Shown here: in pieces, positions 19,424-42,836 of the stretch
Layout of the letters: the number at the start of each line of letters is the position of its first letter
Position numbering within the stretch: the first letter of the stretch is position 1
Sequence record: SRR22947725_670
Reading direction: 5' to 3' (one strand)
DNA length: 49,120 nucleotides
Notes under the pieces: generated by a model
The model's database searches: none
What the model was told of the DNA's origin: nothing
The model's input: the letters and a program-made list of their open reading frames with translations, nothing else
Made by a program: the position numbers and the translations under genes

Positions 19424-20012
19424 AGGTGACCCCCGCCTTGCTCATTTCTTCGAGCGCGCTTTCCTCTGTCACAGGCGACACTGCTGCGACAAGGTCTCGC
19501 AGCACCCGCACCGAGACACCCGCTTTTCGGGCGTCTAAAGCACTTGCCCGCACGCAGTGATCCGTGGCGAGCCCCACCACATCCACTTCAGAAATGGAAT
19601 GGGAGGAAATAAGTCCCTCTACCGTGTGACCCTCATCGGTCGTTCCTTCAAACATGGAGTAGCTGGGGACCCCCTGTCCCTTTTTCACGTGAAAAGCCAC
19701 CGCGTCGGTCGCAAAATCAGGATGATATTTCGCTCCCTCAGTGCCCGCAACGCAGTGAACTGGCCATGTTGATATGAAGTCTGGATGAGTACCCTCCCCG
19801 GCAAAGTGGCCACCGTTGTCATTATCCACGTCGTGCCAGTCTCTCGAGGCAATAATGAGGGCGTATTCGCCGGCATGATCTTTGAGATAGTCACTAATTC
19901 CCCGGGCCACGGCGCCGCCGCCGGCGACGCCGAGAGCACCGCCTTCGCAAAAGTCATTTTGCACATCGACAATGAGCAGGCCCCGCTTAGTCTCCGTGCT
20001 ATTCGTCATCAT
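19416..20012 (-). CDS. pncA: Nicotinamidase/pyrazinamidase (isochorismatase family)
   Basis: IVDVQNDFCEGG, DWH, WPVHCV, GLATDHCVRA. Confidence 0.92.
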   Translation of the reverse strand: MMTNSTETKRGLLIVDVQNDFCEGGALGVAGGGAVARGISDYLKDHAGEYALIIASRDWHDVDNDNGGHFAGEGTHPDFISTWPVHCVAGTEGAKYHPDFATDAVAFHVKKGQGVPSYSMFEGTTDEGHTVEGLISSHSISEVDVVGLATDHCVRASALDARKAGVSVRVLRDLVAAVSPVTEESALEEMSKAGVTFA

Positions 20013-21461
20013 TTAGAAGTCTGCCAGGTTCGCGCCACACGAATACACCCCTGCCACCACGGTTTCCAGGGCCGTGCGGGCATCATCATCGACGGTGCCG
20101 GTAGCGAAAAAGGCAAAGACACGATCGGAATCATCGACGCCTTGAATAAATCCTGCTAACGAGCGGGTCCCCGAAATACTGCCCGTCTTTGCCTGCACAC
20201 GGGAGGTAACGACCGCATTTTCTCCGCCAAAACGGTCATCGAGAGACCCATCCACACCAGCGATGGGGAGTGCCTCTACTAACAACCCGATACTGCCTTC
20301 ACTTCGAAAAACCTCCATCAAGATTCCTGCGACGTATTCGGGGGTGACCTGATTCATTGCAGACAGTCCCGACCCGTCCCTGATGGTGATGCCTTCTGCG
20401 CTCACGCCATACTGCTCGAGTGCTTGGTGGAGTGCTTCGCCCACGCTGGACTGGGATCCATCCAAGCCTTCGACCAAGGACACCTGCCGGGCGAGGAATT
20501 CCGCCAGCGTGTTATCGCTTTCTTTCAGCATGTAGGTGACCAACTCCTGCACGGGCCTCGATTCCACCCGCGCGAGCACAGCACCTTCCGAGTCAGATTT
20601 TTCGTAGCGAATCGTGACAGAACGGGCGGTGTTCCCTGCCGCCTTCAAAGCATCAACAAAAGTGTTGGCAGCCCGGGTAACGGGGTCTTTGCCCCGCGGG
20701 CTCATCGCCGCTGCGGGGTTCGAGCGATCGCCATCGACTTGGAGAGCGGTGACGCGGGATAAAAATCCTTTCGCCCGAGCACTCTCTGCCCACGAATCAT
20801 CCCAGTTGTCCCCTGAATCCCAAAGGGTGGCATCCACAATCAGCTCCGTGATGGACACTTTTGTGCCCTCCTCCAACCCCGCAGAAACCGCTGCGATGGT
20901 TTGTTCTGCAAGCTCCGTCACAGACGGTGCTCCCGCGTAAACGCTTTCGCCCTCGCCGCTGCGGGAGCGAAGTGTGGGGTCTCCCCCTCCCACGAGAACT
21001 ACTGACTGGGATGTCTCTCCCGCCCGAACGGTAGTGGCAAAGGTGGCATCGGGGCCAAGAGAACTCAGTGCAGCCGCCGCGGTAACGGTCTTGAGAACAC
21101 TAGCCGGTGCGAGTAAACCCTCAGAAGCCCTAGCAAACAGCACCTCGCCACTCCAGGGATCGAACACCACACCGGAGAAAACATCCATTCGAGGGTCATC
21201 AAGCAGAGAGGAAATGGAACACGTGGGGAAGCGGACACTGGCCTGAGGAGTCTGCGGATTCAACCGCCCAGTGACCTGCACTGCTGCCTCTTCTGCCTCC
21301 ACAACAGCGGGGATGAGAGCATCCACACTGGGGTTTGCAAACCCCAGAAAACCGGCACCCGCGATGGCGCCAAGGCCCACGGCAGCACCGAGTGCACTAG
21401 CTAGCACTCGCACAACCCGCGATGCTCGCTTGCGCCCCACCAGGTTTTCGTCGGTCTCCAT
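20013..21461 (-). CDS. dacB: D-alanyl-D-alanine carboxypeptidase/endopeptidase (peptidase S13)
   Basis: PASVLK (SxxK), SDN (SxN), DGSGLS, AKTGS (KTG); N-terminal TM anchor. Confidence 0.93.
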   Translation of the reverse strand: METDENLVGRKRASRVVRVLASALGAAVGLGAIAGAGFLGFANPSVDALIPAVVEAEEAAVQVTGRLNPQTPQASVRFPTCSISSLLDDPRMDVFSGVVFDPWSGEVLFARASEGLLAPASVLKTVTAAAALSSLGPDATFATTVRAGETSQSVVLVGGGDPTLRSRSGEGESVYAGAPSVTELAEQTIAAVSAGLEEGTKVSITELIVDATLWDSGDNWDDSWAESARAKGFLSRVTALQVDGDRSNPAAAMSPRGKDPVTRAANTFVDALKAAGNTARSVTIRYEKSDSEGAVLARVESRPVQELVTYMLKESDNTLAEFLARQVSLVEGLDGSQSSVGEALHQALEQYGVSAEGITIRDGSGLSAMNQVTPEYVAGILMEVFRSEGSIGLLVEALPIAGVDGSLDDRFGGENAVVTSRVQAKTGSISGTRSLAGFIQGVDDSDRVFAFFATGTVDDDARTALETVVAGVYSCGANLADF

Positions 21462-21464
21462 AAC

Positions 21465-22859
21465 TCAGGCTTTCCGGGCCTGGGAAAGGTCCCCCAGGAT
21501 GGTGGTTGCCCACTCCGCAACATCGTGAATCGCTACGTCGGCTCGAAGCTGCTTCATGCGCCGCGCTCTTTCACCTTTTTCCATGATGAGCGCCTCCTGC
21601 ATGACTTTGGTGACGTCGCTCACCACAAAGGAATCCACCAGCAATGCCTCTGGCATCTGCTCGGCAGCGCCTGCGTGAATGCTGAGAATGAGCACGCCCG
21701 TGTCATCGTGGCGGGCGGCCACAAATTCTTTGGCCACCAGATTCATGCCATCAGCCAGTGAGCTCACCACCATGACATCTGCCACCACAAAAAGCGCCAA
21801 CATGTCTGTGCGGGGAAGGTTTTCCCGCAGATACACGATTGCCGGGCGGCCGGTAACGGAGGGGAAGGTGGTGTTGACCCGCTCGATGATGGCATCGATT
21901 TCAGCACTCAGTTCTTGATAGCTGGCAACATTTTCTCGACTGGGGCTCCCTGCTTGAACAAAAACAGCGGTGTCTGCGCTCACCGCTCCAGAAGCCAACA
22001 ACTCCTCAAACGCAAGCAGGCGCTGAGTAATACCTTTGGTGTAGTCGAGGCGGTCGACCCCGAGAAATACCCACTCCGGATTGCCCCAACTCGTTGCATA
22101 CTCCCGCGCTTTGGCAAGAACCACCGGCTGCGAAGCTGCGGTGGATACCGCAGCACTGTCAATGGAAATGGGATAGGCGGCGCTGTGGGGAACTGAAGCA
22201 CTTGCGGCCGAAGGGTCCAGCTCCTGCAGGCAGGCGCGGAAGTGATCCACATCACTCTGGCGCTGGAAACCCACAACATCGCAGGCTCCGAGGCCTTTCA
22301 GAAGCTCTGCGGCGTGCTCAAACCCTGCCACGTGTGTGGCTTCGGGAAAGGGAATGTGATGGAAATACCCGATGACCACGTCAGGTCGGAGGCTTCGGAC
22401 AAACTCCGGCACCAGCATGAGTTGATAGTCCTGGACGAAAACGGTCCCACCTTCGGCTACAACATCGCAGACTCGCTGGGCAAAAAGTCGATTGACCTGA
22501 AGATAGCCTGCCCACCACGCCTCTGAGTATTCAGGATCCACCCCGACGTTGTGAAAAAGTGGCCACAGGGTTGAATTACTCAAACCTTCGTAATGATTTA
22601 TTATGTGAGCTTGGGTAAGAGACACTGGCTGAAGGGAAAACCCTTCCAGCTCCAAGGCTTCTTCACTTCCAGAGATTGTCCCATCCCAGCCCACCCACGC
22701 AGCGCCGCTTCCGGCAAGCGCTGGGGCAAGAGCAGCGACCAGTCCGCCTGGCGACAAGATAGGGATTTTGGCGCCGGCGGAATCTTCGCGGTAGGCAATC
22801 GGTAAACGATTCGACACCACCACGAGCTCTGCAAGCGCTGGGATTACCAGAGAAGACAC
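21465..22859 (-). CDS. otsA: Trehalose-6-phosphate synthase (GT20)
   Basis: VVSNRLP, GGLVAAL, LWPLFH, QDYQL, HIPFP, GVDRLDYTKG, DGMNLVAKEF. Start placed at GTG 22859, 7 nt after TAATCT. Confidence 0.88.
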   Translation of the reverse strand: MSSLVIPALAELVVVSNRLPIAYREDSAGAKIPILSPGGLVAALAPALAGSGAAWVGWDGTISGSEEALELEGFSLQPVSLTQAHIINHYEGLSNSTLWPLFHNVGVDPEYSEAWWAGYLQVNRLFAQRVCDVVAEGGTVFVQDYQLMLVPEFVRSLRPDVVIGYFHHIPFPEATHVAGFEHAAELLKGLGACDVVGFQRQSDVDHFRACLQELDPSAASASVPHSAAYPISIDSAAVSTAASQPVVLAKAREYATSWGNPEWVFLGVDRLDYTKGITQRLLAFEELLASGAVSADTAVFVQAGSPSRENVASYQELSAEIDAIIERVNTTFPSVTGRPAIVYLRENLPRTDMLALFVVADVMVVSSLADGMNLVAKEFVAARHDDTGVLILSIHAGAAEQMPEALLVDSFVVSDVTKVMQEALIMEKGERARRMKQLRADVAIHDVAEWATTILGDLSQARKA

Positions 22860-22932
22860 GTGTGCGAGATTATCAGCACACCTCACTCCCAGCGCCCTAG
22901 ACGACCTGGTGTAGCTCGTTTAGAGTTGAGAT

Positions 22933-23106
22933 ATGCGTCGATTCTTGTTTAGCAGTACCATCATCAGTTCCCTCGCCACAGGAATAGGTTTGTTACGCCG
23001 GACATTGTGGGGTCCGCTCAGCTGGCAGGTGTGGTTGCTGTGGCTGAGTTGGGGGATCTCTGTAGTCCTCGCCATTGCGACCATCGTGGAGCCTAGAAAG
23101 CTGTGA
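22933..23106 (+). CDS. Small membrane protein (57 aa), below the ORF-track cutoff
   Basis: MRRFLFSSTIISSLATGIGLLRRTLWGPLSWQVWLLWLSWGISVVLAIATIVEPRKL; TAGAGT 6 nt before the ATG; Trp-rich TM helix. Confidence 0.7.
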   Translation: MRRFLFSSTIISSLATGIGLLRRTLWGPLSWQVWLLWLSWGISVVLAIATIVEPRKL

Positions 23107-23502
23107 TTATTTTGCACCTCGAATATTGTGACCCTGGATGTCTTACTGATGTGGGAACCTAAACATCCAGTCCTGAATTTCCTCAAATGCCCAAATCTTT
23201 GCTCAAATCGATCCGTAAAACTCTCACTTCGCGACCGGAGTGCCGATGGGCTCGCGACTGGTAGCTCAGAGTCTTCTCCGCCACGACACATGCAAAGAGG
23301 AGAGAAAAGGCTGGATTAAAAGATTGCTCTTGAAACTCAAACGAACGTTAATCGATTGCGCCGCCAAATCTAGACCACACTTTCGCCGCACTGTTGAGGC
23401 AGTCTGCCCAGAGTGAGTTCTATCAACGATGGATGACGCTGCGGACCTGAGTTGTCGCGCAAAAACTCCTGTTTCAAGCCCATTGGTTTGTATAGTGAAG
23501 AG

Positions 23503-24279
23503 ATGAAAGCAATTATCGTCGCGGCAGGAATGGGACGTCGCCTCAAGGGACTAGCTGGTGGTAGACCGAAATGCCTTTTGGAGATAAATGGTGTCTCGAT
23601 TTTGGAACGACAACTCAGGGCCTACAGAGCGGCTGGAATCAACGACATCTCGATTGTTACCGGGTATGAAGCAAGTCGTTTAGCTGAGGTGCCGGGGGTC
23701 AAGCTTTACCACAACGACAACTTTGAGAATAACAATGTTCTACTTTCACTCATGCATGCCTCACCGGAACTCGAATCTGATGTAATTATTTCCTACGGTG
23801 ACATTGTTTTTGGGGAGGCCTTAGTTAGACAGGTGTTACCGGTAAAAAATGACTTTTCCGTAGTTGCCGACAAGACCTGGCGGAATAACTACATCGGCAG
23901 AACTGAGCATCCTGAGTCGGAGGCAGAAAAAATCACTGCGGCAAGCGGGCGAGTATTAGCTATCGGGAAGCACCTAAGTTCGCAAAGCGGTGAAGCTGAA
24001 TTTATTGGCATGTTCACGCTCTCAAAAAATGGATGTGAGATATGGAAAAGTGTTTTCGAAGAAGTCCAGATTGACTATGCGGGCTTGCCATTTCAGGGAG
24101 CTCACGTTTTTGAGCATTCCTACATCACTGATTTTTTTCAAGAATTAATTTCCCGAAGAACTAACGTCTCGGTTTCTTTTACCAGTGAAGATTGGACCGA
24201 AATCGATACCGAGCAAGACTACAATAGGGCATGCTTCAAATTTAGTGACTTGGTTTTAGGGGAAAAATGGGCAAAATAA
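23503..24279 (+). CDS. Phosphonyl-tailoring cytidylyltransferase (LicC/PntC-like NTP transferase)
   Basis: MKAIIVAAGMGRRL...PKCLLEING, YGDIVF, RTEHPESEAEK, EFIG, WTEIDTEQD; located in a pepM cluster. Confidence 0.85.
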   Translation: MKAIIVAAGMGRRLKGLAGGRPKCLLEINGVSILERQLRAYRAAGINDISIVTGYEASRLAEVPGVKLYHNDNFENNNVLLSLMHASPELESDVIISYGDIVFGEALVRQVLPVKNDFSVVADKTWRNNYIGRTEHPESEAEKITAASGRVLAIGKHLSSQSGEAEFIGMFTLSKNGCEIWKSVFEEVQIDYAGLPFQGAHVFEHSYITDFFQELISRRTNVSVSFTSEDWTEIDTEQDYNRACFKFSDLVLGEKWAK

Positions 24280-25661
24280 TGAACGATAGGTCGGATAGAA
24301 AACGGATGGCATCTAACTTTCGCTCCATTATTAACGACCTCAAACGTCGCCCGGAAGACGCAGCTGGAGACCTAGGATTATCGTCTAACCAGATTGATGA
24401 CTACCTATCAGGCACTGCGGAAATTACGATGTCCGTTGTAGAAAAGGCTGTCCAGGTTTGGCCAGTGAGCCCAAGAGATTTCTTCCTGCTGCGTGACGAC
24501 TGCACGAATGGAATAAAAATCATGCGTGCACACGAATCCTCAAAGAGTGCAAGGGTCATGTCGCGATCGGGACGCGAGTACTACGAATACAGGGACACTG
24601 CAATGAGCTCTGCCGCCGCGTTTAGGCCTGAGTGGATTCGCGAGCTTTGCGTTGTGGAGGACGATGATCCAGATAACCCCCTCGTTCAATGGAACAACGG
24701 GCATTTCTTGCATCAGTTTACTTACTTCATCGGACCGGTGAACTTCTACTACCGTGACCGACGAGGAAACAAACAAGTTGCGGTGATGAACACCGGGGAT
24801 TCAATGTATATTGGGCCTTTTGTGCCGCACACCTTCACCACGAGATCCAACGAGTCTGGGGAGTTTGGACTAATTCTGGCGCTGACATACTCGAACAAGC
24901 TGGGGGGGGAAGTCCAGCAAGAGTTGAGCCTGCTCGGAAGAGACCAAGCTCAAAAATTGGTTATGAATTTTGAATCACCCGACAAAGCCTCTGGTGCACT
25001 AATCCGGTTTCACCGAGAAGGTCTGAGTATGCCTATCCACTTCCTTGCGGAATCTCTCGGTCAGACTGCGCGAACCGTCCAAGATATCGAAGACGGGATT
25101 GTAGCGCCGAGCTTTCAGTCCTTAGTCGCAATTTCGGAGATTCTCAGCGTCCCCGTCCGGGAAATCATGGCAGGTGGGGCAGGCGAAGATTCCGTCCAAA
25201 TTAGGCGCTCAAATGAATCTCGTCGATGGACTGTGGCAACAGAGCTGAATGAGCCAGTATATGAAATCGTCGAGCTATGTGGCGCGCACAAATTACCATT
25301 TTCCAAGGCGCTTCAAATTACTGTGAAGGCTCCCGACGTCAGGGAAAAGAAATGGCTGGAAGTTGGTCTTCATCAGTATATTTACAACCTCGGAACCTGG
25401 TCGCTAACGCTTCATTGCATGGTTGACTCTAAATCTTTTGAAGAAGTGATTGAACCTGGGGACTCTCTCTACCTAAAACCTGGCGTCAGGCATGCCTTCA
25501 CCAGCAAAGAGACAACTCTTCTTGTGCTAAGGATTGGAGGGCGAGTGGGTGGCGATGCAATACATGAGTTGGCGACTGTCGGCGCAGAGCAGCTTGACCG
25601 AGTTCTCGAGGAATCAATGCAGTGGTTCAACCCGGAGGGCCGGAAAGACGTAGCAAACTGA
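24267..25661 (+). CDS. mpnS: Methylphosphonate synthase (HEPD/MPnS family Fe(II) oxygenase)
   Basis: Two HTH+cupin repeats; NDLKRRPEDAA, YYEYRDTAMS, FRPEWI, QWNNGHFLHQFTYFIGPVNFYY, MNTGDSMYIGPFVPHTF, C-terminal MQWF, colinear with the Nitrosopumilus maritimus MPnS as I recall it; H146/Q150/H188 triad plus F160/I182. Alternative start at ATG 24279. Confidence 0.88.
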   Translation: MGKIMNDRSDRKRMASNFRSIINDLKRRPEDAAGDLGLSSNQIDDYLSGTAEITMSVVEKAVQVWPVSPRDFFLLRDDCTNGIKIMRAHESSKSARVMSRSGREYYEYRDTAMSSAAAFRPEWIRELCVVEDDDPDNPLVQWNNGHFLHQFTYFIGPVNFYYRDRRGNKQVAVMNTGDSMYIGPFVPHTFTTRSNESGEFGLILALTYSNKLGGEVQQELSLLGRDQAQKLVMNFESPDKASGALIRFHREGLSMPIHFLAESLGQTARTVQDIEDGIVAPSFQSLVAISEILSVPVREIMAGGAGEDSVQIRRSNESRRWTVATELNEPVYEIVELCGAHKLPFSKALQITVKAPDVREKKWLEVGLHQYIYNLGTWSLTLHCMVDSKSFEEVIEPGDSLYLKPGVRHAFTSKETTLLVLRIGGRVGGDAIHELATVGAEQLDRVLEESMQWFNPEGRKDVAN

Positions 25662-25796
25662 GTGCCAAGCGTGACACTCAGCAACCAACGGCTTTTTCCC
25701 AACTCGCGATCGGTTCTGAATACACCCTAAATCTTCAGAGAGCCCCCTTTTGCCTCTCTTAGAAAATTTCCTATAGGTATATTAGAAGGGTAACAA

Positions 25797-27107
25797 ATGC
25801 AAAAATCTTTGCGAGTCTACGTTCCGATGGCTGTAGACCTCTTACATCCGGGCCACATCAACGTGATAGCGCAGGCGGCGACGCTGGGTTCGGTCACAGT
25901 CGGTTTACTAACGGATCACGCTATTGCAAGCTACAAGCGTTTGCCGTACATGTCCTACCAACACCGGTCAAGCATGGTGGAAGCTATCAAAGGCGTGGAC
26001 AATGTAGTGGAGCAGGAAGATTGGGATTACTCGGTCAACTTGCGTCGTCTCAAACCAGATTTTTTGGTTCATGGTGATGACTGGAGGTCTGGCATTCAGG
26101 CTCAAATGCGCGCCAGGGCAATTGAGGTTCTTGCTGAATGGGGGGGGGAACTGATTGAGGTATCGTATTTTACAGACTTTGATTCCTCTCAAATTCAAGC
26201 CGAAATAGAGAAAGTGGGGACCACGCCAAACATCCGAATGTCTCGCCTGCGGCGCCTGATCGCCTCAAAGGACGTGGTCCGTGTTCTGGAAGCCCATAAC
26301 GGGATTTCGGCATTGATTGCCGAGTCACTCGAAGTTAGACGGGGAGAGACCCTTGTAGAATTCGATGCTGTATGGTCTAGCTCGCTCACGGATTCAACTT
26401 CCCGCGGAAAACCGGATATCGAGGCGGTGGATCTTTCGGCGAGGCTTTCAACGCTAAATGAGATTTTTGAGGTAACAACAAAACCAATGGTTTTTGACGG
26501 TGATACCGGTGGCCGCATAGAGCATTTACCATTCACGGTGCGGTCCTTGGAGCGTTTAGGCGTCTCAGCAATTGTGATTGAGGACAAAGAAGGCCTGAAA
26601 CGCAACTCACTCTTTGGCGCAGATGCAAAACAGGTTCAGGCAAACGCAGAAGAGTTTGGGCTAAAAATTGCCGCCGCAAAGCGATCTCAGATTACGAAAG
26701 ATTTTATGGTGATCGCGAGAATCGAGAGCCTTATTCTCAAACAAGGCCTCGATGACGCCCTCCGTCGCGCACGCACATACGTCGAATCAGGCGCAGACTC
26801 AATCTTGATTCATAGCAAGTCAGAGTCTCCGGCAGAAGTGATGGAATTTGCCCAGAACTTCAGCTCCGAGTTTCCGTCAATCCCCATTATTGCCGTCCCC
26901 ACCATGTTCAACCAAGCGACCGACAAAGAGCTTGCTGACGCGGGAATTCGAGTGTTAATCTACGCAAATCACATGCTGCGTGCAGCTTATCCAAACATGA
27001 GAGAAGTGGCTGAGCGAATCTTGCTCCACGGGCGATCGTTTGAAGCTGAAGAGCTCCTTGAGCCTATTGGCAGCATGTTAACTCTGATTCCTGGCAATCA
27101 AGAATGA
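25797..27107 (+). CDS. pepM: Phosphoenolpyruvate mutase with N-terminal cytidylyltransferase domain
   Basis: N-terminal DLLHPGH and VHGDDW (CTP_transf_like); diagnostic EDKxxxxxNS motif [10 protein letters not shown] at 26580-26609; DGDTGG, ARIESLI, IYANH. Confidence 0.96.
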
Positions 27108-28237
27108 TTAAGCCCGATGTTTTTTTGAACTGGTTCACTTCGAAGGGAATTAATCACTTTGTGGGTGTGCCAGATAGCCTCCTCAAATCTCTGCTATCAG
27201 CAATAGTTTCAAACAAAGGTGTTGAAAAACATGTGGTTGCTGCCAACGAGGGGGCTGCCGTCGGCTATGCGGTTGGCGTATACCTGGATTCAGGTCTCCC
27301 AGCAGTCGTTTACATGCAAAACTCCGGTCTAGGCAATGCAATCAACCCCCTCACTGCTCTTGCCCATCGAGAGGTTTACGGCACACCGATGGTCTTAATT
27401 ATTGGTTGGCGGGGTGAACCCGGCAAAAAAGATGAACCCCAGCACCTGGTTCAGGGAAAAATTACGCAGGAATTACTCGAAGTCATTGGGGTTCCGTATG
27501 CTGTCCTGGCTCCTGAAGAGGGAGCCGCGCTGAAACAAGTGCAAAGTTTACTTGAGACGGTCTCGTCAGATCCACAACCAGTAGCAATCCTCGTCCCTTC
27601 AGGGACATTCTCAGAAATCTCGCTGCCGCAACCTCCAAATGAAAAGTTTTCTCTGAGTCGGGAAGAGAGCCTCGGAATTGTTGCGGAGCAAATCCCGCAG
27701 AACGCCCGAATAATCGCCACCACGGGAATGTTGGGTCGAGAGTTGTGGGAGTTTCGAAACAGAACTAACTCTTCTGCAGCATATGACTTTATGGTGGTGG
27801 GTGGTATGGGACATGCGAGCGCCGTCGCACACGGTGTCGCCGAAGCGAATCCGACCACTCCCGTGTGGTGCCTTGATGGAGACGGTTCTTTATTGATGCA
27901 CCTGGGATCCGCCGCAGTTATTGGACATCACAAACCAAAAAACCTGAAACATGTCGTTTTCAATAACTTTTCCCACGACAGCGTCGGTGGACAACCGACC
28001 TCGTCGAGCACAGTGGATTTTGGCGACATGGCAAAGTCTCTTGGCTACCACTGGATCGGTTCGGCCTCAGAAGAACCCGACCTTCGAAACTTGACCCGTA
28101 ATCTTGCTCACACTGTGGGTCCGGCAATGATCGAAATCAAAATTCGTCGGGGCTGCCGTGCCAACCTTGGCAGACCCCCGGGCGAAACCTTCTCTTCTGG
28201 CACGAAATTTCCATCTGAGGACGTGTCCGCTTCGTGA
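27104..28237 (+). CDS. ppd: Phosphonopyruvate decarboxylase
   Basis: [44 protein letters not shown], ThDP motif DGDGSLLMH...[15 protein letters not shown] overlap with pepM. Confidence 0.95.
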
Positions 28238-29364
28238 TGACGAGTGTCGGATACCCCTCGGTAACCGGCCAGCGCATAGAGGCCGGCACCGTCGACAAAC
28301 ACCTAAGCACTTGGATAGCAGATTTTGGCTTCACCAGAGTTCTTCTTGTGACCGGGAACAAGTCCTTTGAATGGTTTGAAAAGAAAAGCTTTACAGACTC
28401 GATATCCGCAATTGCTTCCGTGCGGCGATGGGCCGTCACCTTTGCAAACCCGGACATCACTCAACTCAGAGAGGGACTCAAGTTTGCCCAAGGATACAAT
28501 CCAGACCTCGTAATCGGCATCGGCGGCGGGAGCGCCTTAGACATGGCGAAGCTGATTGCTGCACTGCTTGATTGTCCCCAAGAAATTGAGGGCATTTTCG
28601 CAGGCGGCGCGAAGTTAGACACTCGGAGCACCTCCCTTTTACTCGTTCCCACAACCGCAGGGTCCGGCGCAGAAGCTACACATTTCTCGGTTCTTTACAA
28701 AGAAAAAGTGAAGTATTCCGTAGCAGGAAGAGCCCTACTAGCCGATCACGTCGCGCTTGATCCCGAGCTCCTAAGAACTGGCCAGCCAGCCCAATTAGCA
28801 GCCTCTGGACTTGATACTTTATGTCAATGTATTGAAAGTCTATGGTCAAGAAGAGCCACCCCCATCAGCATTGCTTTTGCTGGGGAAGGATTGCGTTTTT
28901 CAGCAGAAAATCTCGTACCATTCGCACAAGGGGAATTCCAACGGGCCGCAGAGATGCAATGGGCCAGCCATCTCTCTGGCAAAGCCATCAATATTTCTCA
29001 AACAACTGGTCCCCACGCATTGGCCTACTATCTGACGGGTAAAAGTGGACTGCCACACGGAATCGCAGTAGCTTCAACAATCGGTCACTTTATTGACCAC
29101 CACAATAAACGTCTGCGCGAAAGCAGTCCCATTAGCGCAATTGCTCTCAGGGAAAGCATGGGCATCGTCAATAAAGAACTAGGGCTTCAAGGAGAACATG
29201 CTGGCCGGTCCTTCTTTGACCACTTGTTCTCTCAACTAGGTTTGAACCAGCCGCAGAGTTACTGGCCCGCAGAACTCAAAAGCCGACGTGAATGGATCAG
29301 CTCCGCAAATCCTGAAAGACTCAAAAACCATCCCACAGATTTGCCGGACCTGACCGAGCGATGA
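28234..29364 (+). CDS. Phosphonoacetaldehyde reductase (Fe-containing alcohol dehydrogenase, PhpC/Pdh type)
   Basis: IGGGSALDMAK, PTTAGSGAEATHF, DTLCQCIESLWS, HALAY, PHGIAV; GTGA overlap with ppd. Confidence 0.88.
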   Translation: MMTSVGYPSVTGQRIEAGTVDKHLSTWIADFGFTRVLLVTGNKSFEWFEKKSFTDSISAIASVRRWAVTFANPDITQLREGLKFAQGYNPDLVIGIGGGSALDMAKLIAALLDCPQEIEGIFAGGAKLDTRSTSLLLVPTTAGSGAEATHFSVLYKEKVKYSVAGRALLADHVALDPELLRTGQPAQLAASGLDTLCQCIESLWSRRATPISIAFAGEGLRFSAENLVPFAQGEFQRAAEMQWASHLSGKAINISQTTGPHALAYYLTGKSGLPHGIAVASTIGHFIDHHNKRLRESSPISAIALRESMGIVNKELGLQGEHAGRSFFDHLFSQLGLNQPQSYWPAELKSRREWISSANPERLKNHPTDLPDLTER

Positions 29365-29444
29365 CCCAAAAACGCGAGATTGGGAAACTATTTTTCCCAT
29401 CCGCTCTTCGTGGGCATTGATTCGCTGATGCCTGTGATCCCCGG

Positions 29445-29517
29445 GGCCGGCTACGGGACTTGAACCCGTAACCTTCCGATTACAAGTCGGATGCGCTACC
29501 AATTGCGCCAAGCCGGC
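29445..29517 (-). tRNA. tRNA-Thr(UGU)
   Basis: Reverse complement GCCGGCTTGGCGCAATTGGTAGCGCATCCGACTTGTAATCGGAAGGTTACGGGTTCAAGTCCCGTAGCCGGCC forms a cloverleaf with anticodon TGT; CCA not encoded. Confidence 0.96.
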
Positions 29518-29560
29518 GTTGCCTGCGTGAGCAGGCCTCTAAGAGTACCGAACGAGTGGG

Positions 29561-30424
29561 TTACTCGCTCTCCTCCAGAGAAGCGACGAAGCTCGCGAGG
29601 TCACCGTGAACGGCAGGCTGGAATTCTTTTCCGTTGACAAGAACGGTGGGTGTCCCCTTAATAAGCGCGACTTCACTATCCTTCACCGGAACCGGACCCG
29701 AGCTCATCGCGCGGGCCGTAGCCTGACCGACCCAGTTGGAGAAGGTCTCCTCCTCAATACAGCTAGCCACTGCATCGATGTTTTCCACACCACTAGCGCC
29801 TGCTAGTTCCACCATCTGGGCATCGGTGAGTTCATAACTGGCAGGGGCTTGCGGCTGATTTTCGAACATCAACTGGGTGAAATCGAAGAAGGAATCCGGG
29901 GCTTTGTCCGCCACACAGGCGGCAGCATTTGCTGCCCTCGTAGCAAAGCGCGTTCCTGCGGTTTGGGCGTCACGGAAAGACAGCGGGTGGTAGGCGACCG
30001 TGGCGGTGCCATTTTCCAACCACGTGCGAAGGATCGGGCCGTAATAACCCTCAAACTGCGCACACGCTGGACAGGTGTAGTCAAGAAACACACTGATTGC
30101 GGGAACGCCATCGGCGTTGGGCTCAGAGGGGATAGGGAGCTCATCGGGCAAGAGCGCGGGGGTTTGCACAGCGGCTAGCCCAGCACCAATTTTGATGCCA
30201 TCGCTTTGCATGTTGGCTGGTCCAGGCCCTGGAGGACGCAGTGAGGTCACGATGAGAACAGCCACCACAGTTACTACCCCCAGCACAACAACCGCCCAGC
30301 CCAGCTGGGCCAGAACTTTGTTGCGCTTGGAGCGCTTGTTTTGTGCTTCGCGCATGGAGCGCGCCTTCTCGCGAGCGTCTTGACGTTTCTCGTTCTTGGT
30401 GGGGCGATTATCTGGAGCGTTCAT
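29561..30424 (-). CDS. Membrane-anchored DsbA/thioredoxin-fold protein
   Basis: Basic N-terminus, one TM helix, DYTCPACAQFE (CxxC), GTPTVLVNG. Start trimmed to ATG 30424. Confidence 0.88.
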   Translation of the reverse strand: MNAPDNRPTKNEKRQDAREKARSMREAQNKRSKRNKVLAQLGWAVVVLGVVTVVAVLIVTSLRPPGPGPANMQSDGIKIGAGLAAVQTPALLPDELPIPSEPNADGVPAISVFLDYTCPACAQFEGYYGPILRTWLENGTATVAYHPLSFRDAQTAGTRFATRAANAAACVADKAPDSFFDFTQLMFENQPQAPASYELTDAQMVELAGASGVENIDAVASCIEEETFSNWVGQATARAMSSGPVPVKDSEVALIKGTPTVLVNGKEFQPAVHGDLASFVASLEESE

Positions 30425-30617
30425 GACTGTTTCTTCCTGAGGGACCGTAGGTGCCTCACTATGGTGACAGAGGAAATCTCGGAGCAAGCTTGGAGCGTGC
30501 GCCAACCCGTCATCTTATCCCGGACTGACCCGGGGCTCTACTGGGAAAAACTGGTGCCGACTCGGGCGGTGCTGGCATACTAGGGATAACACCAAGCCAA
30601 TGTGGGCGTGGTGGGTT

Positions 30618-30662
30618 CCATTCACAAAGGATCGTCCGGCACGTACCTGCCGGTGAAGGAGA
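30618..30662 (+). ncRNA. msiK RNA motif (cis-regulatory)
   Basis: TTCAC...CCGGCACGTACCTGCCGGTGAAGG hairpin overlapping the RBS of an msiK-type ATPase; matches the actinobacterial msiK motif from memory. Confidence 0.75.
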
Positions 30663-30667
30663 AAATC

Positions 30668-31771
30668 ATGGCGTCAGTGACGTTTGACAAAGCAAGTCGT
30701 ATCTATCCCGGAACAACCACCCCCGCGGTGGACGCGCTCGACCTGAGGGTCGAAGATGGCGAGTTCCTTGTTCTCGTGGGCCCTTCTGGCTGCGGAAAGT
30801 CCACGTCGTTGCGAATGCTCGCAGGACTCGAAGAAATAGATGATGGTCGCATCCTCATCGGTGACAGGGATGTCACCGATGTCGCGCCGAAAGACCGTGA
30901 CATTGCCATGGTCTTCCAAAACTACGCCCTGTACCCCCACATGACCGTGGCAGAAAACATGGGTTTTGCGCTCAAGATCGCAGGTGTTAGCAAAGAGAAC
31001 CGCGCCACCCGCGTTCAGGACGCAGCCAAGCTGCTGGACCTTGAGCCCTACCTCGACCGCAAGCCCAAAGCTCTCTCTGGTGGGCAACGCCAGCGGGTCG
31101 CCATGGGACGCGCCATCGTTCGCGAGCCTCAGGTGTTCCTCATGGATGAGCCTCTCTCAAACTTGGATGCGAAGCTTCGCGTCCAAACGAGAACCCAAAT
31201 TGCCTCTCTCCAACGTCGCCTGGGTGTCACCACCGTATACGTCACCCACGACCAGACCGAGGCCCTCACCATGGGGGACCGAATCGCCGTACTGAAGGAT
31301 GGTGTCCTGCAGCAGGTGGGAACACCGCGGGATCTCTACGAGTCCCCTACCAATGCGTTTGTTGCAGGATTCATTGGCTCACCGGCCATGAACCTCTTCG
31401 ACGCTGATGTTGTCGACGGCGGCGTCCAATTCGGCACTGCCACCGCCAAGGTGGACCGCAAGACTCTCGATGGCGCCACCGGGTCACAGGTCACCGTGGG
31501 AATCCGCCCCGAGGACCTCACGGTGTCGGCCACCGGCAAAGGAATCCAGGCCACCGTCGATCTCGTGGAAGAACTCGGCGCGGATGGTTACCTTTACGCC
31601 AACACCGAGATTAACGGCGAGTCCATCGAAATGGTCGTCCGCGTGGACGGTCGCAACCACCCTGTTGCCGGCGACAAGATTGCGCTGCTCCCCATGGAGC
31701 ATCACATGCACGTGTTCGACGCCGCCACCGGCGCTCGCCTCACTAAAGAGGCCATCTCTTCAGGCTCTTAG
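30668..31771 (+). CDS. msiK: Multiple-sugar ABC transporter ATP-binding protein (MsiK/UgpC)
   Basis: GPSGCGKS, VFQNYALYPHM, LSGGQRQR, MDEPLSNLD, FIGSP, C-terminal TOBE domain. Confidence 0.9.
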   Translation: MASVTFDKASRIYPGTTTPAVDALDLRVEDGEFLVLVGPSGCGKSTSLRMLAGLEEIDDGRILIGDRDVTDVAPKDRDIAMVFQNYALYPHMTVAENMGFALKIAGVSKENRATRVQDAAKLLDLEPYLDRKPKALSGGQRQRVAMGRAIVREPQVFLMDEPLSNLDAKLRVQTRTQIASLQRRLGVTTVYVTHDQTEALTMGDRIAVLKDGVLQQVGTPRDLYESPTNAFVAGFIGSPAMNLFDADVVDGGVQFGTATAKVDRKTLDGATGSQVTVGIRPEDLTVSATGKGIQATVDLVEELGADGYLYANTEINGESIEMVVRVDGRNHPVAGDKIALLPMEHHMHVFDAATGARLTKEAISSGS

Positions 31772-31775
31772 TCGT

Positions 31776-31820
31776 CATGCGGGTGGGGCTGCAACGAGAA
31801 TCTGCAGCCCCACCCGCATG
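31776..31820. terminator. Perfect 18-bp inverted repeat (terminator or stabilising hairpin)
   Basis: CATGCGGGTGGGGCTGCA-9 nt-TGCAGCCCCACCCGCATG just after the msiK stop; no U-tract. Confidence 0.65.
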
Positions 31821-31835
31821 GTTAAGGAATAGTCG

Positions 31836-33116
31836 ATGAGCGCCTCGCTCTCCATCACTGCATCGATGGGCAGTGCTGAGCTTTTGGAGCTACCGTGGGA
31901 TCTTCCGTTGGAGAAATGGCCCAAGGCTGCGGTGGCAGCGCTTCCCAAGGGAATCTCCCGCCACATTGTTCGGTTTGTCCACTTAGGCCCCCACATCGTC
32001 GCTATCAAAGAAACGACCCAGGCGCTGGCGGTCCGAGAATATGACATGCTGCGAAAACTCGACCGCCTCGATGTTCCCTGCGTGGAACCCGTGGCCATTG
32101 TGTCCGGGAGAACCGACCACACCGGTGACCCTCTTCCCACCGCGCTGGTGACCAGACACCTGAGGTTTTCCCTCCCCTATCGCGCGCTCTATTCCCAAAG
32201 TCTTCGCCCCGATACGGCCAGAAGGCTTGCTGACGCCTTAGCGGCGCTTTTGGTGCGTCTCCACATCGTGGGGTTCTTCTGGGGCGACGTCTCCCTGTCC
32301 AACACCCTGTTTCGCCGGGACGCGGGCGCTTTTGCTGCCTACCTGGTGGATGCCGAGACGGGTGAATTGATGCCCGGATCGCTCTCGGATGGTCAGCGCG
32401 AAAACGATCTGGAAATCGCTCGTGTCAATGTGGCCGGGGAGCTACTCGACCTGCAGGCAGGTGGCCGGCTCGATGGGGAGATTGATCCACTGGAAATTTC
32501 GGAATCCATCCTGCTGTCGTATCGCGCCCTGTGGGATGAATTGACCGGCTGGGAAAGCTTTGACCAGTCCGAGCGCTGGCGGATCGCACAAAGGGTTCAG
32601 CGACTCAATGACTTGGGTTTCGATATTGAGAACCTCAGCATTTCCAGCGACGAATCAGGTTCCAAGCTCACCATTCAGCCCAAGGTGGTGGATGCGGGTC
32701 ACCACACCAGGCGGCTTCTTCGTTTGACAGGAATTGACGCCGGTGAAAACCAGGCCAGGCGCTTATTGAACGACCTCGATGCTTTTCGAGCGTTTCACTA
32801 CCCCCAGGAAGAGGTGGATGAAGAAGTCGTCGCCCACGAGTGGCTCTCCCAGGTCTATGACAAAGTCATGAAGGCAATCCCCAAAGAGTTCCGTGGGAAA
32901 CTTGAACCCGCGGAAATATTTCATCAGTGGCTCGAGCACCGAGGTATGAAGTCACGGGAAGAAGACCGAGACGTGGGGTTCAAGGAAAGTGTTGCCTCCT
33001 ATATGGAAAACGTGCTCGCCCACAGAAGGGATGAGGCCATGGTGACGGGTCCCCCGACCGAAGCCTTCACGTTGCCTAACCCCACCATTGATGCCAACTG
33101 GCGGGATCGAATCTAG
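31836..33116 (+). CDS. DUF4032 domain protein (LPS kinase-like fold)
   Basis: LPWDLPL, GISRHIVRF, GFFWGDVSLSNTLFRRDAG, YLVDAETG; usual neighbour of msiK in Actinobacteria. Confidence 0.85.
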   Translation: MSASLSITASMGSAELLELPWDLPLEKWPKAAVAALPKGISRHIVRFVHLGPHIVAIKETTQALAVREYDMLRKLDRLDVPCVEPVAIVSGRTDHTGDPLPTALVTRHLRFSLPYRALYSQSLRPDTARRLADALAALLVRLHIVGFFWGDVSLSNTLFRRDAGAFAAYLVDAETGELMPGSLSDGQRENDLEIARVNVAGELLDLQAGGRLDGEIDPLEISESILLSYRALWDELTGWESFDQSERWRIAQRVQRLNDLGFDIENLSISSDESGSKLTIQPKVVDAGHHTRRLLRLTGIDAGENQARRLLNDLDAFRAFHYPQEEVDEEVVAHEWLSQVYDKVMKAIPKEFRGKLEPAEIFHQWLEHRGMKSREEDRDVGFKESVASYMENVLAHRRDEAMVTGPPTEAFTLPNPTIDANWRDRI

Positions 33117-37379: not shown

Positions 37380-37850
37380 GTGCGACGCGGTTTTTTTGCC
37401 CCCCTGGTTCTTGCCTCGGCGTTGATATTGGGAGTCACAGGATGCACCTTCACGGCGGAAATTGCGACCCAAAAGGATTACGACCCCTCTGACGGTGTCG
37501 GAGCCACCATGGGCGACATCGCAATCAGAAACGTCCTCCTGGTCACCAACGATGAGGGTGAAGCAAACCTGGTGATGAGTGTGGTGAACACCAGCGGAGC
37601 GGATGTTTCCTTGCTGGTTCAATACGACTCTGGCTCAGAGCGAGTCGACTCATTGCTTGACATTTCATCGCTGCCCGCTCTCACCAGGTTCGGGGATGAC
37701 CCCGCAGCAGGAATCATCATCGAAGACGACGAGGTCTTAGCAGGCTCACTATTCCCGGTGTATTTCCAGTACGCCGATGTTCCTGGCGAACTATTATTTG
37801 TGCCCGTGCTCGATGGCACCATGGCGGAATACGAACTACTCGTTCCCTAA
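37380..37850 (+). CDS. Conserved actinobacterial lipoprotein
   Basis: Lipobox VTGC, YDPSDG, VPVLDGT..EY; GGAGG RBS; divergent from carD. Confidence 0.8.
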   Translation: MRRGFFAPLVLASALILGVTGCTFTAEIATQKDYDPSDGVGATMGDIAIRNVLLVTNDEGEANLVMSVVNTSGADVSLLVQYDSGSERVDSLLDISSLPALTRFGDDPAAGIIIEDDEVLAGSLFPVYFQYADVPGELLFVPVLDGTMAEYELLVP

Positions 37851-38527
37851 GCTTCGAATCGGTACCCCAAACCCCGCACCGTTACAATCAGCGTGGGGTC
37901 CGAGGGCGATAGTTCTACTTTTGATCGCAATCGCTTGATGTGGACGTCCAGCGTTTTGGTATCACCAAAGTAGTCAGAGCCCCACACCCGGTCGATAATT
38001 TGGCCCCGCGTCAAGACGCGGCCAGCATTGGACATCAGTAACTCCAGCAGCTCAAACTCCTTGAGGGGAAGCGAGACCGCTTCGCCTCGAACGAAGAGTT
38101 GGTGGCGGTCGGTGTCGAGGGAGATCCCGTGATACTCCAGCACGCCACCTTCGGGCTCAGGTTCTTGGGCTCGCCTGCGGAGCACTGCTTTGATACGCGC
38201 CAGAAGCTCGCGAGAGGAATATGGCTTGGTCACGTAGTCATCTGCCCCCAGCTCCAAACCCACGACAATGTCCACTTCGGCGTCTTTCGCGCTCAACATG
38301 ATGATCGGAAGGGAAGAGGTGAGCCTCACCTGGCGGCAGACCTCCGTTCCCGAAAGCCCCGGCAACATCAAATCCAGCAACATGAGATCCGGTGGGTCTT
38401 CGGTGAAGGCTGCCACGGCGGAAAGACCGTTGTCCACCACCGCAACGTCGTAGCCCTCTCGGCGCAACAAATAGGCCAGGGGTTCACTGAGAGACTTTTC
38501 GTCCTCGACAACCAGGATTGACGTCAC
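37847..38527 (-). CDS. regX3: Response regulator RegX3 (OmpR/PhoB family)
   Basis: LVVEDE, LDLMLPG, GADDYVTKP, WGSDYFGDTKTLDVHIKRLR. Confidence 0.9.
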   Translation of the reverse strand: MTSILVVEDEKSLSEPLAYLLRREGYDVAVVDNGLSAVAAFTEDPPDLMLLDLMLPGLSGTEVCRQVRLTSSLPIIMLSAKDAEVDIVVGLELGADDYVTKPYSSRELLARIKAVLRRRAQEPEPEGGVLEYHGISLDTDRHQLFVRGEAVSLPLKEFELLELLMSNAGRVLTRGQIIDRVWGSDYFGDTKTLDVHIKRLRSKVELSPSDPTLIVTVRGLGYRFEA

Positions 38528-39795
38528 GGCCTTCTGCCCTCTCCCGGTGCGGGGCTTTCCTCCACACTCACCACAGGAATTTCATCAGTGGCGAGGTATT
38601 CGGCCGGCCGAGGAATGACCTTCTTGCCCACGGGTGCTGGCAGAACCTCCCCTTCATCGCCTAACTCAGAGCCCACGGGGGCCTGGCGCAAACGGATGGT
38701 GAAGGTGGAGCCTTTACCCCATTGAGACCACACCCGAACTTCCCCCTGGTGGTTATTGATGACGTGTTTGACGATGGCAAGACCCAATCCAGTTCCTCCC
38801 GTGTCGCGCGATCGAGCGGGGTCACTGCGATAAAAACGCTCAAAAATCCTTTCGAGGTCCCCTTCGGCAATCCCTTGGCCTTGATCGGTGACAGAGACTT
38901 CGATCACCCCGCCTTTAATGCTGGTTCCCACCCCCACCCGGGACTGGGATGGGGAATACATAATTGCGTTGCGCACCAGATTATGCAGCGCACTCGTCAG
39001 GGAGCCAGGATCTCCCATGACCAAACCACCGCTTGTCGCCGACATGGCCACGGTGATGCCAGATTTCTTCGCCAGGACCGAATTGGTAGCAATGGCTTGT
39101 TCGACCACTCGATCGATTGAGACTACCTCGGGGTCTTGAATCGTGCCCAGGGATTGCAGTTTTGTCAACTCAATGATGTCGCTGGTCATTTCCGCGAGGC
39201 GGTGACCCTCTTTTTCCAGTGTCGCGGCAAAGGCCCGCACCTGATCGGGATCATCCGCGGAGTACTGGAGGGCTTCGGCGAGCAGCGAGACAGCGCCAAT
39301 GGGGGTTTTGAGTTCGTGTGAAATGTTCGCGACAAAGTCACGTCGAACAGAGTCCAGAAGGTACATTTCTGACCGATCATCGGCCACCACCAACATCAAA
39401 CGAAGTCCCAGTGGCGCGACCCTCACCAGAAGGTGCACCGGCGGTGCCGATGAGGTTTCTCCGGGCAGCTCAAACTCTTCAGAGAGAGGAATACCCTCTT
39501 CGCGGGATTCCCGCACTAAGTCGAGGATCGGTTGGTAGACCACGTCGCGGTCAGTGACAAGGCCCAAAGAGATAGCCGACTTAGCCGCCCGGAGCACGCG
39601 GTTGTCTGCATCTAAGACCACCCCGGTCGCACCGATCACTTCCAGCGCCGTGTCCACGCCGTGGGGCACCGGCTGTTCCAGGACGGTTTCACCCCGACGG
39701 CTCCAGCCCACTGCGGCCCAGACCAGCGCGGCCAAAAGAAGACCGATGGCAACGCCCAGTCCCACACTCCAGCCCGATGACCAGACCCATTCCAT
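38524..39795 (-). CDS. senX3: Sensor histidine kinase SenX3
   Basis: RRDFVANISHELKTP, NLVRNA, DQGQGI, GGTGLGLAI; divergent from phoU. Confidence 0.9.
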   Translation of the reverse strand: MEWVWSSGWSVGLGVAIGLLLAALVWAAVGWSRRGETVLEQPVPHGVDTALEVIGATGVVLDADNRVLRAAKSAISLGLVTDRDVVYQPILDLVRESREEGIPLSEEFELPGETSSAPPVHLLVRVAPLGLRLMLVVADDRSEMYLLDSVRRDFVANISHELKTPIGAVSLLAEALQYSADDPDQVRAFAATLEKEGHRLAEMTSDIIELTKLQSLGTIQDPEVVSIDRVVEQAIATNSVLAKKSGITVAMSATSGGLVMGDPGSLTSALHNLVRNAIMYSPSQSRVGVGTSIKGGVIEVSVTDQGQGIAEGDLERIFERFYRSDPARSRDTGGTGLGLAIVKHVINNHQGEVRVWSQWGKGSTFTIRLRQAPVGSELGDEGEVLPAPVGKKVIPRPAEYLATDEIPVVSVEESPAPGEGRRP

Positions 39796-39865
39796 GGCTC
39801 AAGCCTAGGGTGTTGCCACCGGCCGTTTGCGAGCTTTAGGCGCTAAACTAGGCTTCAAGCGGAGA

Positions 39866-39898
39866 GTTAACCCCCGCATCACCCCGCGTTAACGTTGG
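39866..39898 (+). promoter_or_regulatory. PHO-box-like array of three 11-nt direct repeat units
   Basis: GTTAACCCCCG / CATCACCCCGC / GTTAACGTTGG in exact 11-nt phase between senX3 and phoU; resembles the Streptomyces PhoP GTTCACC unit. Confidence 0.6.
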
Positions 39899-39943
39899 TG
39901 CGAGAGAGTCGCATGAAGGGGTTTGAGGTCAACAAGGAGCAAC

Positions 39944-40597
39944 ATGCGCGAGCTTTTTCAACAAGAACTGCACGAAGTCCAGGATCGGCTCGTCGCCATC
40001 GCCGGTCTCGTGGTCACTTCTATCACGGACGCGGTCGAAGCCTTCAACAAATCTGATGTCACGCTGGCCGAATCGGTCATTGCCCGGGACAGCATCATCG
40101 ATGAGGCGGTCAACGAGCTAGACGAGCACGCCATCGCTATTCTTGCAAGGCAATCGCCAGTCGCGAGAGATCTTCGCATCGTGGTCAGCGCCTTACGCAT
40201 CAGCTCGTCGCTGGAGCGGATGGGTGACATGTCGGAGCACCTCGCCCAGCTTGCGCGGTACCGGTTCCCCGACAAAGTGGTGCCCAAGTCCATTCGACCC
40301 ACCTTCCAAGAGATGGGTTCACTCGATGTCCAGTTGGCGACAATGCTGGTGGAGCTGCTGAAAACTCAAGACACCGCGCTGGCCGAGAAAATCCGCGACG
40401 AGGACGACAAGGTCGACAAGTTGCACCTATCCGTCTTCGAAACCGTGTTGAGCGAAGGATGGGTTCAGGGGGCTGAAACTACTGTCGACGCCACACTCGC
40501 ATCACGTTATCTCGAGCGGTTCGCCGACCACGCTGTCTCCATCGCGAAGAAGATGATGTATCTCTCGTCGGGAGAATGGAACCCGAGCGAGTCCTAG
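39944..40597 (+). CDS. phoU: Phosphate signalling protein PhoU
   Basis: [42 protein letters not shown] before ATG 39944. Confidence 0.95.
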
Positions 40598-41343: not shown

Positions 41344-41366
41344 GCCTCCAGCTTATCCAGCGACTC

Positions 41367-42386: not shown

Positions 42387-42390
42387 GTCT

Positions 42391-42501
42391 CTAGCGCTGG
42401 CCCTTGTAGAGATTGAGCAAAACAATCCCCGACAACCACGCGATTGCTACTCCTGCAAGCACGAGGAGGCCGAGGAAGAAGATTTCAATGGCAAGGAGCA
42501 T
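42391..42501 (-). CDS. Small single-TM protein (36 aa), below the ORF-track cutoff
   Basis: MLLAIEIFFLGLLVLAGVAIAWLSGIVLLNLYKGQR*; fills the gap between two co-oriented genes with 4-nt spacers on each side. Confidence 0.72.
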   Translation of the reverse strand: MLLAIEIFFLGLLVLAGVAIAWLSGIVLLNLYKGQR

Positions 42502-42505
42502 GCCC

Positions 42506-42772: not shown

Positions 42773-42836
42773 ACCCCCATGCTAGAGCCCGGTTAGAATG
42801 GGGTCACTGCACAAGCAAGAATCGAGGTGAGCCGTT

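Follow-up and report, generated by a model that had tools for sequence, protein, structure and literature searches.

In oxic water, bacteria with a carbon-phosphorus (C-P) lyase use methylphosphonate as the substrate for releasing methane. Among the 2-hydroxyethylphosphonate dioxygenases (HEPDs), class I enzymes (PhpD type) carry a 2-His-1-Glu triad, and the class II enzyme of Streptomyces albus yields hydroxymethylphosphonate (HMP). The route from phosphoenolpyruvate (PEP) over phosphonopyruvate, phosphonoacetaldehyde and 2-hydroxyethylphosphonate (2-HEP) to methylphosphonate is described in PMC8931226 and PMC12619172, and for its last enzyme, methylphosphonate synthase (MPnS), the metal-binding triad plus a Phe and an Ile beside the Gln are reported as “required for methylphosphonate synthesis” (PMC11978286). 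Known methylphosphonate producers are few and comprise, besides Nitrosopumilus and SAR11, a handful of other marine groups; the marine MPnS candidates in PMC9381506 belong to Pelagibacterales, Rhodospirillales, Rickettsiales, Oceanospirillales, Flavobacteriales, Synechococcales and Thaumarchaeota/Crenarchaeota. That candidate list names no actinobacterial group, and the hepD sequences of the same paper are mostly from actinomycetes. The phosphonate genes of Prochlorococcus and SAR11 are described as horizontally transferred, located in islands, present at low population frequency and carried by producers without catabolic genes (PMC8931226). Here we analyze a stretch of 49,120 nucleotides from sequence record SRR22947725_670 (“the window”, always meaning this whole stretch) and the MPnS homologue P0001 encoded in it. 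Our analysis makes it very probable that P0001 is a genuine MPnS belonging to a self-contained five-gene cassette, which a genome-streamlined marine actinobacterium would have acquired horizontally beside a tRNA-Thr gene and which some of its strains would carry.

An original prediction, made from the letters of the window alone, had read the pattern H146-x3-Q150...H188 with Phe160 (VNF) and Ile182 (MYI) in P0001, and translation of 24267-25661 returns exactly these residues (codons H146 24702-24704, Q150 24714, F160 24744, I182 24810 and H188 24828-24830). In a phmmer search of all PDB chains the top match of P0001 was the N. maritimus MPnS (6b9s/6b9t, E 6.7e-134, 450.5 bits), with P0001 residues 13-459 aligned to 6b9s 15-455 and no gap from residue 13 to past 196. 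Because this active-site alignment is gap-free, each diagnostic residue maps at a constant offset of +2, onto H148, Q152, F162, I184 and H190; K26, also present in the P0001 translation, pairs with K28. The offset of two residues that had been predicted against the N. maritimus enzyme, including the lysine pair, thus holds. The second match, with 297.9 bits, was the S. albus HEPD 6b9r; HppE epoxidases came next with about 30 bits, and no PhpD-type chain was among the PDB matches. As likewise predicted, the S. albus enzyme holds a Tyr in the F160 column and a Gly in the I182 column of its alignment with P0001. P0001 itself shows neither the Glu ligand of class I HEPDs, its ligand position being Gln150, nor the Tyr/Gly pair of class II, in place of which it has Phe/Ile. 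Of the computable features of MPnS, the 2-His-1-Gln triad, the Phe/Ile pair and full-length homology to the bicupin with helix-turn-helix-like modules are all present, as are the tree position and the neighbouring genes treated below, and the distinguishing features of both HEPD classes are absent. The H-Q-F-I-H motif is not a chance pattern, since it sits in a full-length homologue.

Relatives of P0001 came from two sources. Searching 1.84 billion cluster representatives with HMMER yielded 454 matches at E <=0.001 and 178 at 1e-30, the best being P0002 with 52% identity. When one genome of each GTDB species was scanned, 61 loci with 34-63% identity over the best segment were found, none of which names an actinobacterium in its record title. 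Overall, P0001 is at most 52% identical to any searched cluster representative or species-representative genome. The family is widespread and covers many phyla. After 65 of the 216 BLAST-matched sequences had been dropped as partial, 151 sequences covering query residues 30-440 were aligned (49 from the loci and 102 representatives). At the five diagnostic sites 115 of them read H-Q-F-I-H, 20 H-Q-Y-G-H, four H-Q-Y-I-H and 12 show other combinations.

A tree was calculated with FastTree (LG+gamma, 152 sequences, 442 trimmed columns); it included congeners of the organisms with characterised MPnS (Nitrosopumilus, Pelagibacteraceae), not the characterised proteins themselves. P0001 falls in a clade (support 0.918) with Nitrosopumilus, other Nitrososphaeria, Pelagibacteraceae, some Gammaproteobacteria, metagenome-assembled genomes (MAGs) labelled as DPANN, and Chloroflexota/Limnocylindria; the last group stands closest to it, though local support for this is weak. 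Nearly all members of this clade are H-Q-F-I-H, and the main H-Q-Y-G-H clade is separate (support 0.961). Two leaves scored against the PDB anchor the tree: for P0020, a member of the Tyr/Gly clade, HEPD 6b9r gives 518.9 bits and MPnS 292, and for P0004 of the Nitrosopumilus subclade MPnS gives 588.3 bits and HEPD 269.7. With 450 versus 298 bits, P0001 by its sequence falls on the MPnS side of the anchored tree. Over the catalytic cupin (residues 98-200) its identity is 68-73% to Nitrosopumilus, 74-75% to the Chloroflexota type, 62% to one SAR11 sequence and 55-59% to the Tyr/Gly sequences. The tree, which the original prediction had proposed as a check together with the alignment, hence groups P0001 with Nitrosopumilus, SAR11 and Chloroflexota and apart from the Tyr/Gly clade, and the alignment places neither Tyr/Gly nor a Glu ligand at its diagnostic sites.

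Two side observations concern other members of the MPnS clade. A Marine Group I thaumarchaeote (L029, 2874-4295) carries the HEPD-type pair, H-Q-Y-G-H, inside the otherwise H-Q-F-I-H clade. Three Chloroflexota/SAR202 loci (L032, L034, L038) in the same clade show the mixed state H-Q-Y-I-H, for which the Phe/Ile rule allows no prediction of the product.

The characterised actinobacterial members of the superfamily are HEPDs, and 79% of the hepD database is assigned to Actinomycetia (PMC9381506). P0001 could therefore be taken for a class II HEPD-like enzyme that makes HMP plus formate, the more so as it shares superfamily and His/Gln/His triad with 6b9r and scores 298 bits to it. Against such a reading stand Phe160 and Ile182 in place of Tyr/Gly, an MPnS score 152 bits above the HEPD score, the position of P0001 outside the main Tyr/Gly clade, and the gene content of the island, in which Pfam and NCBIfam models found no gene for downstream processing of HMP. 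We regard it as very unlikely. The claim that P0001 is an MPnS and not an HEPD agrees with the triad, the Phe/Ile pair, the scores, the tree and the accompanying gene set leading from PEP to 2-HEP.

That automatic pipelines may mislabel the protein as an XRE/cupin regulator had also been foreseen, and this is borne out: Pfam reports just HTH_3, HTH_31, Cupin_2 and similar domains, NCBIfam has no matching model (0 families), and the automatic names of the nearest ESM Atlas clusters read “hypothetical protein” or “putative helix-turn-helix domain-containing protein”. A transcription regulator would fit these labels. Against it stand homology from end to end to two crystallised enzymes of this fold with all metal ligands in place, and a gene that lies inside a phosphonate operon and is coupled to it in translation; its probability is negligible. 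The read survey in PMC9381506 applied a cut-off of 60% identity to reference MPnS, which PMC12916788 reused, and a survey by KEGG labels found no mpnS in a lake (PMC10734540); recruitment at 60% identity or by KEGG label would probably not count P0001, with its 52% identity at most to the representatives found.

P0001 is the second of five genes that form a tight block, all on the plus strand. The block and its borders are as follows.

24267..25661, plus strand: MPnS homologue P0001, 464 amino acids (aa), with H146/Q150/H188 and F160/I182
23503..24279, plus strand: LicC-like (MobA-like NTP_transf_3) nucleotidyltransferase, 258 aa from ATG 23503, Pfam PF12804 (4.1e-14)
25797..27107, plus strand: fusion of a Fom1-like cytidylyltransferase (CyTase, residues 1-145) and a PEP mutase (PepM, residues 146-436), 436 aa, Pfam PF01467 and PF13714
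27104..28237, plus strand: phosphonopyruvate decarboxylase (Ppd), thiamine pyrophosphate-dependent, with TPP_enzyme_N and TPP_enzyme_C, TIGR03297 406.9 bits (cut-off 312.5)
28234..29364, plus strand: iron-containing alcohol dehydrogenase (Fe-ADH), Pfam Fe-ADH 3.7e-31
23107..29442: inserted genomic island, 6.3 kb, left edge uncertain by about 30 nucleotides (nt)
22933..23106, plus strand: conserved small hydrophobic host open reading frame (ORF) of 57 aa, its stop codon being the left island edge
29443..29517, minus strand: tRNA-Thr (TGT), found with ARAGORN, its 3' end adjoining the right island edge

The 3' end of the nucleotidyltransferase overlaps the MPnS start by 13 nt, a gap of 135 nt separates MPnS from the CyTase-PepM fusion, and the starts of Ppd and Fe-ADH each overlap the preceding stop by 4 nt. 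The open frame of the nucleotidyltransferase begins at TTG 23452 (23452-24279), but ATG 23503 is the likely start, giving the usual MKAIIVAAG N-terminus. In one marine-metagenome contig (run X4, depth 2.3) a base is missing at 23461, within the TTG extension upstream of this ATG, in agreement with a real start at ATG 23503. PDB matches of the nucleotidyltransferase are LicC (1jyk, 57 bits) and PntC (6pd1, 29.5 bits). The fusion protein reaches 378.5 bits with TIGR02320 (cut-off 319.55); its domains match the Fom1 CyTase domain (5x3d, 168 bits, E 2.6e-48) and the PEP mutase 5unc (159 bits), and as in Fom1 an N-terminal PF01467 is fused to a PEP mutase with an EDKxxxxxNS motif. PepM, Ppd and a reductase, i.e. 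the genes for the supply of 2-HEP, are all present. Fe-ADH is probably the phosphonoacetaldehyde reductase that makes 2-HEP, an assignment at family level. Scanning the island for promoters and terminators produced fewer matches than shuffled sequence did and is thus uninformative. The CyTase-PepM fusion (49-60% identity) and Ppd (40-48%) have their nearest loci in DPANN-labelled and gammaproteobacterial genomes, and MPnS and the nucleotidyltransferase are nearest to the Chloroflexota/Acidobacteriota/Myxococcota type; by these identities the island looks mosaic.

We propose that the five genes act as one pathway. The PEP mutase domain would convert PEP to phosphonopyruvate, which Ppd would decarboxylate to phosphonoacetaldehyde and Fe-ADH would reduce to 2-HEP. 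MPnS, a predicted non-heme Fe(II), O2-dependent bicupin enzyme, would turn 2-HEP into methylphosphonate and CO2. The LicC-like and/or the Fom1-like cytidylyltransferase would then form a phosphonate bound to cytidine monophosphate (CMP), probably for attachment to a surface polymer. We infer this cytidylylation because nucleotidyltransferases are common in phosphonate clusters (they accompany two-thirds of them, PMC6697681), because Fom1 CyTase makes CMP-HEP and PF12804 enzymes make CMP-aminoethylphosphonate (CMP-AEP; PMC6697681), and because fusions with MPnS exist. In PMC6697681 MPnS is mentioned 0 times.

The partner genes recur at other MPnS loci. Across the 61 loci, which belong to other phyla, PepM was found at 50, Ppd at 49 and an ADH homologue at 48 (within 6 kb of MPnS), with all three at 44; these counts and those that follow are lower bounds, as some loci lie on short contigs. 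A LicC-like transferase is present at 35 of the 61 loci, in nine of them directly upstream of MPnS, and a CyTase domain at 26; ten have both transferases. Among the 17 long representatives (>=560 aa) a further domain is fused ahead of the MPnS-like domain in several: nine are LicC-like (P0002, P0061, P0124, P0110, P0103, P0139, P0095, P0074, P0129), three Fom1-like (P0141, P0150, P0126) and one is Fe-ADH (P0076). It is conceivable, though rather unlikely, that MPnS acts on, or passes its product straight to, a nucleotide-bound phosphonate, with methylphosphonate never free; the Fom1-like domain would then supply CMP-2-HEP, and CMP-methylphosphonate would be the actual end product of the pathway. 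If this were true, the CyTase-MPnS fusions of both kinds would be the trace of such coupling, and the five-gene island alone would make a marine actinobacterium a source of methylphosphonate-decorated polymer.

Evidence that the cassette arrived as an inserted unit comes from the nearest genome (G001, 1.3 Mb, 97% complete). One of its contigs (C19) matches the window at 20002-23078 with 94% and at 29443-33000 with 96% identity, with 36 bp in between, and on the left side homology is detectable to about 23078. At base level G001 reads from the stop of the 57-aa ORF over nine bases to the 3' end of tRNA-Thr(TGT), where the window has 6.3 kb. The tRNA-Thr is 97% identical in two further genomes of the genus. 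The GC content of the island is 0.500 versus 0.574 in the rest of the window, the lowest among all 6.3-kb windows, and at third codon positions it is 0.46-0.54 in the island genes versus 0.60-0.71 in neighbouring host genes. The island thus combines a position next to a tRNA gene and a deviant composition with a site that is empty in a close relative. It may have entered by recombination through the flanks, or may derive from a former element that has since decayed. An ORF of 123 aa on the minus strand (22920-23291) spans the left junction and overlaps the 57-aa plus-strand ORF; it has no family match and is unlikely to be a gene.

Outside the island the window is ordinary chromosome, with succinate dehydrogenase, TrpRS, a riboflavin operon, OtsA, CysRS, IspDF and CarD; the region 37847-45796, 8-16 kb downstream of the island, holds a Pho-type pair of sensor kinase and response regulator with PhoU, a GlnR-type regulator (GlnR_1st) and polyphosphate kinase. 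Core genes such as the GlnR_1st regulator and CarD-IspDF-CysS fit an actinobacterial host, in line with the original prediction.

Sampled 31-mers of the island were found in 19 sequencing runs from 11 studies. One run with 0.92 of the island 31-mers was set aside as the possible source. Labelled runs with island words are marine, aquatic or seawater metagenomes or plain metagenomes, and several runs are unlabelled; those with a small share of island words (X6-X19), bar X10 and X13, were excluded as habitat evidence. Four runs (X3, X4, X10, X13) were mapped on 22500-30000 at >=90% likeness. In the DNA runs X3 and X4 short contigs lie on island genes with 0-2 differences and a word depth of about 2-4, and flank contigs have a depth of 30-44 and differ from the window by 9-31 letters. 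This agrees with a majority of related strains without the island and a minority bearing it, contig depth being a poor measure. One contig each in X3 and X4 joins 22828 to the tRNA at 29443, the shorter side being just 28 letters; the joint agrees with the empty site of G001 and is not an independent proof. In the metatranscriptome run X10 four contigs fall within MPnS (24389-25459), a further one lies in the transferase and another spans the Ppd/ADH junction; in the metatranscriptome run X13 contigs cover the transferase/MPnS junction, PepM and Ppd. All island contigs of these two runs, which come from two studies, show 0-2 differences. Contigs over tRNA-Thr (29443-29517) in X10 and X13 run into unlike sequence on both sides, and the same tRNA sequence therefore occurs there in other genomic contexts.

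These data also bear on whether the island is an artefact of assembly or binning, i.e. foreign DNA joined at a conserved tRNA in an actinobacterium without the island. tRNA genes are classic misjoin sites, and here one lies at the very edge of a segment of deviant GC content; the island contigs of X3 and X4 have a fraction of the depth of the flanks, and none crosses a junction. Yet both flanks return to one host locus, exactly at the 36-bp site of G001, and two precise misjoins would be needed, the left one in unique sequence. The deep flank contigs, by their 9-31 differing letters, derive from related strains without the island, and published data likewise show such islands at low frequency within populations (PMC8931226). 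An artefact is highly improbable, and we retain a horizontally acquired cassette present in part of the strains as the best explanation.

A number of observations nevertheless weigh against this explanation and are gathered here. The state H-Q-F-I-H is the commonest in the family (115 of 151), and the signature alone therefore discriminates little. To our knowledge, the Phe/Ile rule is backed by few validated enzymes. The best NCBIfam model for Fe-ADH, Phn_Fe-ADH (TIGR03405), gives 127.9 bits, far under its cut-off of 423.7, and none of the island genes is a CMP-phosphonate transferase. No flanking direct (att) repeat of >=12 nt was found at the island, and Pfam and NCBIfam recognised no integrase-like domain in its ORFs, which leaves insertion by a site-specific element unsupported. 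Evidence for the junctions comes from the assembly of the window itself and from the collinearity of both flanks with G001, and no contig of X3, X4, X10 or X13 bridges either of them. The contigs of X10 and X13 are a hint of island expression, as coverage is sparse and RNA libraries can contain DNA. LicD was found in one of 38 genomes of the genus.

A homologue of P0001 was found in none of 41 relatives (25 of the same genus), none of 38 genomes from the genus (15 with a completeness of >=90%), none of 401 family genomes (101 genera) and none of 401 genomes of the phylum; these sets overlap and are samples only. The same search recovered MPnS in four of four genomes known to carry it. PhnJ of the C-P lyase was likewise absent from the 38 genomes of the genus, with E. 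coli as positive control, in keeping with the rule, known from the literature, that producers do not act as consumers. The exact P0001 sequence is absent from the ESM Atlas. Three of its nearest Atlas clusters (150, 82 and 193 members) have “Actinomycetota” as their commonest phylum, counted among just 4-6 members with a record; metagenomic data therefore probably contain further actinobacterial copies, and uniqueness is not claimed.

Another species of the genus shows phosphonate genes of a different kind. Its genome (G012, 86% complete) has a short contig (L071, G012:C64:1-3114) with a CyTase-PepM gene 53% identical to that of the window, followed by Ppd (41%), and a second one (L070, G012:C125:1-2132, GC 0.44) with LicD and a LicC-like gene. 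There is no MPnS match in G012. These genes are probably an independent cluster for phosphonate decoration. As its CyTase-PepM differs from that of the window, phosphonate synthesis would have entered the genus at least twice.

In full-text searches on MPnS and methylphosphonate we found no report of MPnS in an actinobacterium, though supplementary tables may contain such a case. The enzyme family and transferred phosphonate islands are already known; new are the host group and the clean island. What stands, judged from sequence comparison, is a well-supported and probably functional MPnS cassette in a host group so far unlisted as methylphosphonate producer, with unusually clear evidence of acquisition. 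With five genes and an empty sister site, the island is a very clean natural example of a minimal transferable methylphosphonate unit.

The closest known systems share some traits with the island and differ in others. N. maritimus MPnS (6b9s/6b9t) has the same architecture, length, His/Gln/His ligands and Phe/Ile pair as P0001, and Nitrosopumilus loci have PepM, Ppd, ADH and a LicC-like nucleotidyltransferase nearby. Overall identity to the Nitrosopumilus sequences is just 44-46%, however, and the host here is an actinobacterium; their loci lack the Fom1-like CyTase that is fused to PepM in the island, and the Nitrosopumilus cluster sits among glycan genes (PMC9381506) whereas the island consists of the bare five genes. 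The closest MPnS found (47-52% identity) are those of MAG loci from Limnocylindria/Chloroflexia, Acidobacteriota and Myxococcota (L005, L006, L008, L011, L022, L024; also P0002), which as in the island have a LicC-like transferase directly upstream of MPnS. In P0002 transferase and MPnS form one protein of 702 aa, in the island two genes with their short overlap. The PepM of these loci is without a CyTase domain and just 35-38% identical to that of the island.

SAR11 (Pelagibacteraceae) offers marine, streamlined hosts in which a CyTase-PepM fusion (46-51% identity), Ppd and ADH adjoin MPnS, and within its populations the ability to make phosphonates is infrequent and moves horizontally (PMC8931226). 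Its MPnS is just 38-42% identical to P0001, though, and most SAR11 loci show no LicC-like transferase. The class II HEPD of S. albus (6b9r) shares fold, His/Gln/His triad and host phylum, but differs by Tyr/Gly at the two deciding positions, by 298 versus 450 bits and by a separate clade. With Fom1 of Streptomyces wedmorensis (5x3d) the island fusion shares the domain order CyTase-PEP mutase. Fom1 cytidylylates 2-HEP (PMC6697681), and the substrate of the island CyTase would be 2-HEP or methylphosphonate. Fom3 and Fom4 of the fosfomycin system are absent from the island, where MPnS is the downstream enzyme.

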